From Octopus vulgaris (Eukaryota), in assembly GCA_951406725.2 (NCBI GenBank), contig OX597840.1, positions 38,564,001-38,628,000 on the forward strand: a stretch of 64,000 nt of DNA, written 5' to 3'. The notes under the pieces are model-generated. The model searched no databases. It saw only the letters and a list, made by a program, of their open reading frames with translations, and was not told the origin of the DNA. Positions 4,685-52,150 of the stretch are shown here, one piece after another. Within the stretch, counting starts at the first letter, position 1, and each line of letters begins with the position of its first letter. A program made the translations under genes and the position numbers.

Positions 4685-4766
4685 CATCTCCGACAGCTGT
4701 TTCAATTCAAGTCTTTAAAAATTAATTAATATAAAAGAATTTTATAGTTGAATCTCATCGGAGGTG
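4685..4766 (-). ncRNA. Degenerate type I hammerhead ribozyme (family H5)
   Basis: Minus strand CACCTCC-[CT missing]-GATGA-GATTCAA-(37-nt loop)-TTGAATT-GAAA-CAGCTG-TC-GGAGATG. Helices I-III pair but the core is damaged. Confidence 0.6.
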
Positions 4767-5501
4767 GAAAAATAAATATCAGTTACATTTTCATATTATC
4801 GTGTGTTGAATATTTGGAGCAAATCTACTAACTATAAATATTGTGTAGAAAGATCATGGTAGAAACCTTAGAAAAGGGAAGGGGTAGCATATTTATCGAA
4901 ATTATTATAAAAATGAAAATAAAAATATAGAATAAGATATGGTAATAAAACATATGTATCTCTAAATTATAATTAAGTATCAAATAAAAATAACTGTGAA
5001 TGTGGTTATAAAAATATAGGTAGTAATATATCACGGGTAGTTATCAATATTATGAAACTAGTAGTTGGTTAATTGAAGTTATCGTAAACCAATGAATGAC
5101 TATAGAAAAATTAGGATGAATACATATATAAATAGTTTGAAATTATTCAAGTAATTAAGGGGTGTATATGTAAATAAAATAAATATAAGAAGGTTAATAG
5201 GTGAAAATATGTTTTTGAGTGCATTATATATAAATGCAATTCATAATTTATATGTATAGTGATAGAATACAAGTGCAATAATCATAAAATAAAATAATAT
5301 GGAATAGATTAGCAAGCAGGCTATTGAAAATTTGTTATTACGCAAATGGAAATATAAGTTTACACGAATGTTTATATTAGATATAAATAATTAATTGTGG
5401 GCAAAAACATATTTAAAAAGTTGTGTGAAATTACTACATGTAGTATACAGTAACTTAAAACATATAATGACTTATGTGTATGCTAAAAATTAAGAATTAT
5501 A

Positions 5502-6067
5502 TAGGGTTGTCCGGAAAGTTCGTGCCTATATTTAACAGCTTACCTTTCGACTTATTTTAGAACATGGTCGAGTCTATAGAATAGGATTTGACTACACCTC
5601 CATTTAGAGCACAGTTTAAGATATCTTTATGTGGAAGAATGTTTATGTTCCTATAACCTGTGTTAATTCTATAACCCTTTAAAATGGAAGATCACACGAT
5701 TCATTTTCGGCACTTGATGCTTTGGGAAACAGACAAAAATTGCTGCATTTCGGCTGGGATGTGTTACCCCACCGTCCTTATTCACCAGATATTGCTCCTT
5801 CGGATTTCCACTTATTCAGGTCTCTGCAGAATAGTCTTAAAGGTAAAAATTTCAATTCTTCGGATGACGTAAAAAGATACTTTGATGAATACTTAGCCTT
5901 GAAATCACTGCAATTCTGGGAAGAGGGTATTTTCAAGTTAAAGGAAACATGGAGACGCATTGTGCAACAAAATGGTTCGTATTTGGTTAATTAAAAATGT
6001 AATGGCAAGTATTTATTGACCTTTTTCTTTCCTTTAAAAATCGGCGCAAACTTTCCGGACAGCCCAA
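5502..6067 (+). mobile_element. Internally deleted mariner DNA transposon
   Basis: Imperfect TIRs TAGGGTTGTCCGGAAAGTTCGTGCC / GGCGCAAACTTTCCGGACAGCCCAA flanked by TA. N-terminal MEDHTIHFRHLML is joined to C-terminal GWDVLPHRPYSPDIAPSDFHLFRSLQN...GIFKLKETW (YSPDLAPSD motif). Confidence 0.95.
5684..5994 (+). pseudogene. Mariner transposase remnant (N-terminus plus C-terminus, middle deleted)
   Basis: ORFs 5684..5872 and 5722..5994; YSPDIAPSDFHLF motif. Confidence 0.9.
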
Positions 6068-6172
6068 TATATTATATATAGTCAAGCGTAGAAGTATATT
6101 ACGTTCAATAGAGTTTATGGAGATAGAATCAAATACTAAACCATACGGTAATGAGTAAATAAATAAATAATT

Positions 6173-6400
6173 GTGGAGGCGCAATGGCCTAGTGGTTAGG
6201 GCAGCGGACTTGCGGTCGGAGGATCGCGGTTTCGATTCCCAGACCGGGCGTTGTGTGTGTTTATTGAGCGAAAACACCTAAAAGCTCCACGAGGCTCCGG
6301 CAGGAGGTGGTGATCCCTGCTGTACTCTTTCACCACTCTAAAAGGCGGTGCTCCAGCATGGCCGCAGTCAAAATGACTGAAACAAGTACAAAAAAAAAAA
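6173..6400 (+). mobile_element. Chimeric SINE: family A head with family B 3' tail
   Basis: A head runs to CACCACTCTA (about 6340), then AAAGGCGGTGCTCCAGCATGGCCGCAGTCAAAATGACTGAAACAAGTA and an A-run. Confidence 0.85.
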
Positions 6401-6424
6401 TTAATTAATTAGATAATGTTATTA

Positions 6425-6514
6425 ATATACTTACGTACTTGTAACATATGAGAGACCCTTAAAATTTATATTGAATTGATCAAATGAAAAATTAAAGCAT
6501 AAACAAAAATCCAT
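6425..6514 (+). pseudogene. Decayed GIY-YIG endonuclease-like fragment (Penelope-type)
   Basis: Manual translation IYLRTCNI*ETLKIYIELIK*KIKA*TKIH resembles the IY-x-I-x-C-xx-C...YIG-x-T-x-R-x-L-xx-R-xx-EH pattern, with three stops. Confidence 0.45.
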
Positions 6515-48400: not shown

Positions 48401-50206
48401 TGATAGATATGTTTCTTTATTAGCCACACAGGGCTGCACACAGACAGGACAAATTACAAGGTAGAGCGTTTCTTTGGGGGATAAAAAAAGGGGCTTTGGT
48501 TTTCGATCAAAAGGGATCGTAAAAGGAAAGAAAGAGGACAAAAAAGGGGGGGGGGGATAAAGTTTAAAAAAAGATAGATAGATAGATAGATAGAGAGAGA
48601 GAGAGAGCGATAGATTGATATATAAATAGATTGATTGATTGATTGGTTGATACATACACGGTGATATTTATCTATTTCTTTATTGAGTAGCACAAGTATG
48701 GAAGACGTAGATTTAGGACACTTAATCTCTATACCAAAAATTCAAGAGCATATGGAAATCGTAGTCTCAATGCTCGGAATTATCTCCCTTGTATACGAGA
48801 CAAATATTCGGATGAATTAATCATTGGCTAAGCTAATCATCTCGCAAGCGCGCAAACATTTCTCTTCAGCGTTCCTGATGCTATCTCCTTGAAATGCATT
48901 AATTTTAATTTAAATATTGCATGTAAATATGTTGGAATATTTATATTGAAACTCTTTGGGGAGTCACATGTTTTAGAACTTGTGATTCCATGTGTTGAAT
49001 AAGATATACTGGCCTTTTCATTTTATTTACTGCATGCATAATCTCCCGTTTATTCATATTCCATGTTATTTTTTCTAAATATTTAGTGAAGGCTTTAATA
49101 TTCAACAAAATCTTCTTAATATAGTAACTTATTGTGCGTGTGTATAAGCGAGATGAAATAAACATTTTCACATAATCTAAACGAAAAATATAAGTAAGTT
49201 CATGTTATCGAACGAAGTGTTTTTAAAGAATATATTAAAAATTTATATATTTTTGTTCTTTGTAAGACATGCTGATTCATGTGAAATATTTGATGTAGAG
49301 TTTCCAGTTATAATATTTCCCTTTGCGCAGTCGATTTATATAGTCACATCTTTATGCATTTTCGGGATTAATTTAACTTTTGAATGTTCGAAATAATGAA
49401 TATTTTTGCAAAAAAATATATGTATTTCATTCAGTTAACATAGTGATACATACATTTGTATATTCTTAAATTTGGCTGACGCTGAGATTTGTTTAACGTT
49501 TGAAGAAACAGATCCACGAATTTAGCTTATTACAGAATCTTTACCACTTTACCTTGTTTCGTATTACGAATTCCCAGACACGAAAATACAAATTAAAATT
49601 TCTCTCCACCATTCAGAATCAATAAAGAAGATGGCTCTACTTCAAGATGAATATATATATATATATATATATATATATATATATATATATAGAAAAATAT
49701 TAATATCTACGTATATGTATATATATATATATAAAATAAATATAAGAGAGTGGTCACTATATGGCTCACTCTAGCACCAGTTAATCCAAAAGGTTTCAAC
49801 CACAAAAATACATGTTTCCCATGAAAGTCAGTACGATTGTTAGCTCACACGGACAGGGCAAATAAAAAATAACAAAAATACAGATTATTTTGGGACAATT
49901 GTTTCGCTATTAATGAATTAAATGTAATTTTACTTATAAAAAAATCCACTTGAATTAATTAATATATATATATATATATATATATATATATATATATATA
50001 TATATATATATAATTTCAGAAACATATTAATATCTACGTATATGTATATATATATATAAAATAAATATAAGAGAGTGGTCACTATATGGCTCACTCTTGC
50101 ACCAGTTAATCCAAAAGGTTTCAACCACAAAAATACATGTTTCCCATGAAAGTCAGTACGATTGTTAGCTCACACGGACAGGGCAAATAAAAAATAACAA
50201 AAATAC

Positions 50207-50300
50207 AGATTATTTTGGGACAATTGTTTCGCTATTAATGAATTAAATGTAATTTTACTTACAAAAAAATCCACTTGTAGCTCCTCAGCCAAAACTATCT
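50207..50300 (-). ncRNA. Type I hammerhead ribozyme H2, copy 1
   Basis: Minus strand AGATAGTTTTGG-CTGAGGA-GCTA-(43-nt loop)-TAGC-GAAA-CAATTG-TC/CCAAAATAATCT. Palindromic helix III ACAATTGT, GUC triplet, cut between 50219 and 50218. Confidence 0.88.
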
Positions 50301-50741
50301 GGATGAAATCCACTCAATCACACGCCAGATTTTACCATAACGATAAATACGCGTGTGGTTCAATTGATTACATCCGACGTTATAATTCAAATGCCCCAAC
50401 TAACAGCGCGCCAAATTTTCACGGAAAACAAATACAGCATTTAGAAATAAATGCAGCATAATTATAATTAATTGATAAGGGTGAGAGAATTAGATACTAA
50501 TTTAATAGTATATCTATTCTACACCAAGTGGCCTAGTGCTCCGAGAAACCTGGATTATTATAATATTTTATAATATATTATAATATTTTTACAAAATAAA
50601 TATAAGAGAGTGGTCACTATATGGCTCACTCTAGCACCAGTTAATCCAAAAGGTTTCAACCACAAAAATACATGTTTCCCATGAAAGTCAGTACGATTGT
50701 TAGCTCACACGGACAGGGCAAATAAAAAATAGCAAAAATAC

Positions 50742-50835
50742 AGATTATTTTGGGACAATTGTTTCGCTATTAATGAATTAAATGTAATTTTACTTACAAA
50801 AAAATCCACTTGTAGCTCCTCAGCCAAAACTATCT
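50742..50835 (-). ncRNA. Type I hammerhead ribozyme H2, copy 2
   Basis: Same motif 535 bp away. Confidence 0.88.
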
Positions 50836-51782
50836 GGATGAAATCCACTCAATCACACGCCAGATTTTACCATAACGATAAATACGCGTGTGGTTCAATT
50901 GATTACATCCGACGTTATAATTCAAATGCCCCAACTAACAGCGCGCCAAATTTTCACGGAAAACAAATACAGCATTTAGAAATAAATGCAGCATAATTAT
51001 AATTAATTAATAAGGGTGAGAGAATTAGATACTAATTTAATAGTATATCTATTCTACATCAAGTGGCCTAATGCTCCGAGAAACCTGGATTATTATAATA
51101 TTTTATAATATATTATAATATTTTTACAAAATAAATATAAGAGAGTGGTCACTATATGGCTCACTCTAGCACCAGTTATATATATATATATATATATATA
51201 TATATATATATATATATATATATATATACACATATATATATATCTACACATATATATATATATAAACATATATATATATGTATGCATGTATGTATACATA
51301 TATACATATATATATATATATATATATATATATATATATATATATATATATGTATATATATAGATAAGCTTTATAAATATGAATATATATGTACACACAC
51401 ACATTCATATATATATATATGTATATAATTTCTTTTTCAGAATGAAATACAAATCCAAAGCTATGACGATTACATAAACCTATTTATAAATGTTCTAAAA
51501 TCATCACGGTCTTGTTTTTTTAACCCATTCTGAATATATATATATATATATATACACGTGCTGATATATGACCTACGTTGGATTCCTTATTCGCATAATC
51601 ACAAAACCTGGAACTTAAATATGGTCTAACCATAGCACTTACTCCGAATTACCTGACACCTTTGTGTCTTACGGACACCATTAACTCTCATAACCTCTCT
51701 TTCTCACTCCCTCTCGCTATCTCCCTCTCTCTCTCTCTCTCTCTCTCTCTATATATATATATATATATATATATATATATAT

Positions 51783-52150
51783 AAACATTATTGGTGAATT
51801 GAAGAAATGGAGCTGAACGCAGATTGAGCAGAAATCGTTTTATTTCATTCTACACGTGTTTCGAAAGGCACAAATTACCAAAATCCGATTGATAATTTGG
51901 TAATTTGTGCCTTTCGAAACACGTGTAGAATGAAATAAAACGATTTCTGTTCAATCTGCGTTCAGCTCCATTTCTTCAATTCACCAATAATGTTTTAATT
52001 TCAATTATCCGCACCAACGCACGGTTGCAACACCATATGGTTGTACCTCCAACCGTGCTGTTTACTGCTGTGATTTTTGCTACTAAGGTATCGGTTAAAC
52101 TTTTGATTAATCTACTACAAGATTATTCATCTTTCTATTTCACATAATAT
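51783..52150. mobile_element. Family H3 repeat as a 100-bp fold-back
   Basis: 51783-51882 versus 51896-51995 inverted (1 mismatch, 13-nt loop). Each arm has only the 3' half of the H3 hammerhead; the right arm probably continues to about 52150. Confidence 0.85.

Follow-up and report, generated by a model that had tools for sequence, protein, structure and literature searches.

Nine type I hammerhead ribozyme motifs, falling into five families, lie within 64,000 nucleotides of the Octopus vulgaris genome (GenBank assembly GCA_951406725.2, contig OX597840.1, positions 38,564,001 to 38,628,000 of the forward strand; this whole stretch is called the window below). They are likely to be the self-processing signals of Penelope-like retroelements (PLEs) and of the non-coding retrozymes that these elements probably move, with a helix III predicted to pair two copies of the motif in a tandem transcript. 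This reading builds on a conserved core, paired helices and a self-complementary helix III, on tandem arrays free of open reading frames (ORFs) in the families H1 and H2, and on a fixed 3' end in the family H3. H1 and H2 appear to be retrozyme-like.

Type I hammerhead motifs in the window

The window is AT-rich, non-coding DNA, full of microsatellites and short interspersed elements (SINEs): none of the 262 ORFs tested is recognisable by Pfam. It was searched with a type I hammerhead descriptor (core CTGANGA, helix II, GAAA, helix III, TH, helix I) that does not require palindromy. Nine matches were obtained, four of H1, two of H2 and one each of H3, H4 and H6, and helix III is self-complementary in all of them. 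For helix I, the threshold of 3 bp was chosen after inspection of H3 and H4; raising it to 4 bp leaves seven matches. In 450 dinucleotide shuffles, 11 matches appeared (1 at 200 bp, 4 at 1 kb and 6 over the whole window; 150 shuffles each), none of them palindromic. Among 125 core-only matches in viral contigs, both helices were present in 2, and 24 were palindromic, no more than the 25% expected by chance. It is confirmed that hammerhead motifs are commoner in the window than expected by chance.

The predicted core is intact (CUGANGA, GAAA, UH, three helices and an open helix I) in H1, H2, H3, H4, where helix I is weak, and H6. This type I core is missing from H5, and also from the half copies of H3, H2 and H5b, a relative of H5. 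An earlier sequence-only reading of this DNA had also counted five families; the number stands for intact cores, but not for the same five, as its H5 is broken and H6 was overlooked. Its positions for the motifs of H1 (four), H2 (two), H3 and H4 were recovered, and the H3 copies at 51783-51995 are halves. The pairing of unlike helices I and II, which it took for covariation between families, is conservation of structure among sequences that cannot be aligned, not phylogenetic covariation.

In the best parses, helix II starts directly after the core, with no unpaired base between A9 and helix II. The helix II arms measure 51-109 nt in H2-H6, hence in four of the five intact families. Five intact-core loci in 64 kb represent a high local density. 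A type III scan and relaxed scans of the window (minimal helix III, extra base, U3-A8 core) gave no convincing further family. The whole-window Rfam scan yielded no hammerhead among the 150 of 386 matches listed, mostly microsatellites and hairpins resembling miRNA models. In single scans with RF00163 (Hammerhead_1), which covered H1, H2 and H3, the gathering score was reached by none of the three, and the families are indeed poorly annotated, as had been proposed. The local density, together with long helix II arms that Rfam misses in four of the five families, suggests that published counts undercount such genomes, even if one selected window does not allow a safe extrapolation. Six-frame reading round each motif revealed no recognisable PLE protein end, ARAGORN returned 0 genes in the window, and the exact H1 and H2 motifs had 0 and 0 occurrences in metagenome contigs.

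Arrays and insertions of the hammerhead families

H1 forms an inverted tandem array:

31741..33615, no strand assigned: H1 insertion made of 479-nt tandem units free of ORFs; two arrays meet 5'-to-5' at a junction around 32563-32580, and each outer end lies in (TA)n
32002..32049, minus strand: H1 hammerhead copy 1, predicted cut after 32009
32481..32528, minus strand: H1 hammerhead copy 2, predicted cut after 32488
32954..33001, plus strand: H1 hammerhead copy 3, predicted cut after 32994
33433..33480, plus strand: H1 hammerhead copy 4, predicted cut after 33473

The four motifs are identical, with a helix I of 7 bp, a helix II of 4 bp plus tetraloop and the helix III ATCAC-T-GTGAT. The latter is of odd length and self-paired at 10 of 11 positions: a 4-bp stem with a 3-nt loop and one central base, not a perfect palindrome. 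Among the monomer stems compared it ranks as the most stable, a nearly neutral hairpin (+0.8). The ends of the H1 array do not coincide with the cut site. Folded as a predicted circle, the H1 monomer (GC 0.336) reaches a z of -5.95 against shuffles (-6.92 on repeat; antisense -2.88), and helices I and II remain formed.

The H2 array is shorter and lies on one strand:

50039..51178, minus strand: H2 array, ~2.1 units of 535 nt without an ORF, mismatched at 4 of 540 positions; TA tracts at its bounds
50212..50295, minus strand: H2 hammerhead copy 1, predicted cut after 50219
50747..50830, minus strand: H2 hammerhead copy 2, predicted cut after 50754
49712..49952, minus strand: partial H2 copy, ribozyme 3' half only (at 49905), belonging to a local 325-bp duplication

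The motif has a helix I of 7+5 bp, a helix II arm of 51 nt and the helix III ACAATTGT, and the array ends away from the cleavage site. The predicted circle of the H2 monomer (GC 0.323) has a z of -6.83 (-7.69 on repeat), while nine control stretches range from +0.98 to -2.13. In this circle, the strand carrying GAAA and helix III pairs with the sequence just downstream of the cut (50198-50240 and 50733-50775, minus strand), a pairing that would lock the ribozyme off.

H2 is present in 20 of the 24 sequencing runs listed, from 10 studies and under 8 organism labels; by their records, none of the listed runs with H2 is RNA. Variants were followed in contigs from four runs, whose RNA status was guessed, and 40 of 50 variant rows were inspected. 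In these rows, the free position N7 is the sole variable one of the core, with an alternative letter in 49-100%, and the palindrome carries no variant. Every bin of the unit, or almost every one, is covered by contigs, which seldom continue into other sequence (shares 0, 0.01, 0 and 0.08 in the four runs). One contig, 565 nt long, loops back onto itself at 535.

In the runs guessed to be RNA (X10 and X15), T>C changes on the plus strand, that is, A>G on the hammerhead strand, were seen at 50134, 50141, 50210-50214, 50278 and 50509-50515. In X10 they occur in 20 contigs at 50134 and in 10 at 50141, and they are absent or below 1% in the deep DNA run X1. The pattern is a hint of A-to-I editing of H2 transcripts. 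The runs come from different individuals, one of them under another organism label, and in X1, too, 10 of 15 places are A>G/T>C.

The third family, H3, is found as insertions with a common 3' end:

16197..16401, minus strand: H3 insertion, C3 at 16340, predicted cut after 16267; helix II arm 55 nt; helix III ACACGTGT
16097..16180, plus strand, second copy 16402-16485: 84-bp direct repeat flanking H3
51783..51995, no strand assigned: two H3 copies, both 5'-truncated, that meet 5'-to-5' within helix II; without the 5' core

The 84-bp repeat is likely the target duplication of the H3 insertion. The 3' halves of the inverted pair stand at 51862 (minus) and 51916 (plus). All three copies share a 3' end ~70 nt beyond the cut, in (TA)n, and differ on their 5' sides; H3 looks like a 5'-truncated PLE end. 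A match to MIR5565 at 51834-51944 was discarded: it is the H3 inverted pair, and its score is under the gathering threshold. At 3890-3905, on the minus strand, a small hairpin contains GAAAG-CACGTG-TAGAA, which is similar to the H3 3' half but for an additional base; the motif scans detected no 5' core for it.

The insertion features expected of PLEs are thus found in several places: a fixed 3' end near the motif (H3), 5' truncation, inverted junctions (H1, H3) and a (TA)n target. Of nine insert ends checked, eight are no more than 11 bp away from a (TA)6+ tract, against a background of 3.3% within 10 bp, the ends not being independent of each other.

The remaining families are the following:

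26504..26637, plus strand: H4 hammerhead, C3 at 26507, predicted cut after 26634; motif 26507-26634
4685..4765, minus strand: H5 relic, helix II and ACAGCTGT retained, core broken (reads CCGATGA)
6793..6914, plus strand: H5b, 79.5% alike H5 over 122 bp, 3' half only
41143..41238, minus strand: H6 hammerhead, C3 at 41233, predicted cut after 41148; overlooked by the sequence-only reading

H4 has a helix I of only 3 bp, a helix II arm of 109 nt with an internal microsatellite and the helix III ACAGCTGT. Its hammerhead fold lies 10.8 kcal/mol above the minimum free energy (MFE), and the motif is probably decaying. H6 combines a helix I of 5 bp with a helix II arm of 67 nt and the helix III ACGTACGT. 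A hammerhead fold forced on H5 gives +0.5 versus -14.0 kcal/mol. In H5b, the palindrome is broken (ACACCTGT at 6827-6834) and the whole 5' half is missing. H5 (4615-4765) and H5b (6793-6914) face apart over ~2 kb, with a mariner remnant and a SINE in between, and are possibly another, older 5'-to-5' inverted insertion. The full motifs of H3, H4 and H6 are single copies in the window. H4-H6 may also be 3' ends of truncated PLE-type elements, less surely than H3.

Helix III pairing and alternative readings

In the proposed mechanism, read-through transcripts of the H1 and H2 arrays would be cut once per unit, and the monomers would be ligated into circles of 479 and 535 nt. A PLE reverse transcriptase (RT)/endonuclease would copy round the circle into (TA)n, which would result in arrays of more than one unit with permuted ends. 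Two copies in one tandem transcript are predicted to pair via helix III as a double hammerhead. Computed energies favour the homodimeric double hammerhead over two monomers by 11-16 kcal/mol; they include neither tertiary contacts nor, apart from duplex initiation, a concentration term. The sequence-only reading is supported in seeing hammerheads of the PLE/retrozyme type with a palindromic helix III that would permit dimers; this is already published (PMC4209133), and the RF00163 consensus agrees with it. The palindrome it saw in each family is found in the 8-nt stems of H2, H3, H4 and the relic H5, and also in H6; that of H1 is of odd length, and that of H5b is broken.

Several points weigh against this interpretation. 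The support comes from motif, pairing and array structure; cleavage, transcripts and circles are predictions. For each family, the MFE structure is 2.7-10.8 kcal/mol more stable than the hammerhead fold. With RF00163, H3 scores 14.8 bits (gathering 34), and H1 and H2 give no match at E up to 10. No RT or GIY-YIG remnant exceeds the Pfam cut-off in the 262 ORFs (at least 55 aa), a search of low sensitivity that also missed a visible mariner remnant. The H2 antisense folds strongly too (z -6.42), and a looped contig can come from tandem DNA just as from a circle. The zero variants in ~20 constrained H2 positions are weak evidence on their own, since ~1.3 would be expected from 37 variable places in 571. 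The extra base after CUGANGA, typical of PLE min-hammerheads, is absent here, although some published PLE rows lack it as well (PMC4209133, PMC8557442). Finally, metazoan retrozyme units are described as 150-450 bp (PMC7229834); the H1 and H2 units, at 479 and 535 nt, are outside this descriptive range and are for this reason filed as retrozyme-like.

An alternative that agrees with the preferred explanation on origin, and is compatible with it to that extent, departs on mechanism: the motifs would mostly act as monomers or be dead relics, the palindrome being inherited with little present role. We regard this as unlikely. Efficient cleavage as monomers is reported for most type I motifs of invertebrates in which helix III has 2 bp and a tetraloop, those of retrozymes included (PMC7761336, PMC7229834), a result that also casts doubt on the earlier claim of cleavage in tandem only. 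Moreover, the monomer hairpin of the H1 stem has an energy close to zero, H3, H4 and H6 are single, and H4 and H5 show decay. However, a palindromic tetraloop occurs in all four intact 8-nt stems, ~(1/16)^4 by chance, so that selection for self-pairing is needed in the source elements, and the long helix II arms probably lack the contact between loops 1 and 2 that normally assists monomers.

It is also improbable, and rather more so, that every family, with H1 and H2 among them, represents the 3' ends (pseudo-long terminal repeats, pseudo-LTRs) of autonomous PLEs; the tandem units would then be partial tandems, with no circular RNA stage. The PLE-type scars on H1 and H3 would agree with it, and so would the Hydra-clade PLE hammerheads with H1-like odd-length stems and a short helix II (PMC8557442). 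On the other side, the H1 and H2 units repeat exactly and without an ORF, their ends are permuted with respect to the cut site, the whole-unit fold is far outside the controls, and the H2 contigs span the whole unit with the low run-on shares given above.

The sequence-only reading went further and proposed a code: the helix III palindromes would be selected, family-specific addresses that gate cleavage, with cross-activation where an address is shared. Matched duplexes reach -6.4 to -11.1 kcal/mol and mismatched palindrome pairs -4.9 to +0.2, the five intact families have five different stems, and no variant of the H2 palindrome was met in the rows inspected. Yet this better pairing of matched palindromes, and with it the discrimination between unlike ones, is an automatic result of base pairing. 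As the outer AC/GT is fixed, only 16 eight-base addresses are possible; H2-H6 show four distinct ones among five eight-base stems (chance P 0.42; all distinct 0.50), and the first free base is common to four of the five. Furthermore, the topology of a type I double hammerhead makes helix I intermolecular as well. Among the ten mixed dimers of intact-core families, helix I is predicted not to close at one site in eight, and the other two are unfavourable. Helix I alone blocks mixed dimers, so no helix III address is needed to keep the families apart. Published stems are reused as well: one helix III is common to 5 of 14 Hydra magnipapillata families and its arms to 6 of 14 (PMC8557442), and two of three Aedes families share one (PMC4209133). 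The Hydra reuse may be due to relatedness, but it is not orthogonality. In this small sample from one window, the stems are neither more distinct than by chance nor decisive for the partner, and a selected code is very unlikely. A title and abstract search, with most subscription journals outside its coverage, found no published address code and no cephalopod retrozymes.

The preferred explanation would account for the differing palindromes more simply: a self-dimerising stem must be palindromic, and lineages would drift among the 16 solutions. Separation of the families would come from proximity in cis and from the swapping of helix I strands, not from a selected address. Mixed H4-H5 and H3-H5 dimers are allowed in silico, so the proposed cross-activation of H4 and H5 is structurally possible, but the H5 core is broken. 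We give very little credence to a large unannotated population of long-armed hammerheads in which helix III and helix I were selected as keys and RNAs license or hijack cleavage in trans, for example H4 for H5.

Other repeats and comparison with known systems

A short remnant with inverted ends and a YSPDIAPSDFHLF frame at 5500-6078, missed by Pfam, is presumably Tc1/mariner-like. Three dispersed families were also noted. The first, 82-95% alike, is a probable SINE with a tRNA-like head by eye (6174-6339, 584-770, 22058-22442, 29623-30021, 43940-44330 and 58616-58808). The second is abundant, with copies of 400-450 bp (9723-10153, 7992-8487, 19246-19875, 28446-28900, 30485-31049, 47057-47493, 52934-53544 and 63413-63841). 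The third forms partial tandems (10191-10426, 25431-25666, 37127-37763, 38319-38741 and 60121-60346). At 45995-46086, a 92-bp inverted repeat, 80% self-complementary, has no relation to the hammerhead families.

Palindromic helix III, dimers, many families per genome and low in vitro activity were described for PLE hammerheads by Cervera & de la Pena 2014 (PMC4209133), and (TA)n targets and inverted 5'-truncated copies by Craig et al. 2021 (PMC8557442). The window motifs are alike in being type I, with a short palindromic helix III and many divergent families (PMC4209133, PMC8557442 File S2). They also share the motif near a fixed 3' end, the 5' truncation, the inverted 5' copy and the (TA)n targets. 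An octopus Hydra-clade PLE, Hydra-1_Obim, has an odd-length helix III ~100 nt from the 3' end (PMC8557442), resembling that of H1. Unlike in PLEs, no ORF is linked to the motifs in the window. Among the rows inspected in the PLE tables, metazoan arms are short, and long ones are seen only in deviating plant rows, which sets H2-H6 apart. Five window motifs of 11-14 nt had no match in the part of the PMC8557442 supplement searched.

Metazoan non-LTR retrozymes (Cervera & de la Pena 2020, PMC7229834) share with H1 and H2 the low-GC (<45-50%), ORF-less tandems with one type I hammerhead per unit, a highly self-paired predicted circle and a high copy number: a coral has 16 families and >6000 motifs, a mussel ~5000 and the axolotl 126,247. 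H2 deviates from their canonical form by its long helix II. PLEs were proposed as retrozyme mobilisers in the same paper, and the PLE-type inverted junction of H1 in (TA)n makes this proposed, unproven route checkable in an assembly.

The RF00163 consensus has the same core and an 8-nt palindromic helix III of its own. The double hammerheads of newt satellite and avocado sunblotch viroid (PMC6155905, PMC6466107) are similar in that a weak helix III is rescued by pairing of tandem copies; here, on the contrary, several families coexist in one short stretch, a ready panel for comparing homo- and heterodimer cleavage. Helix III palindromes, cleavage as dimers and multiple families in one genome are already known, and the window motifs are new members of the PLE/retrozyme group, of which the long helix II arms and the PLE-type scars on a retrozyme-like array are worth following.

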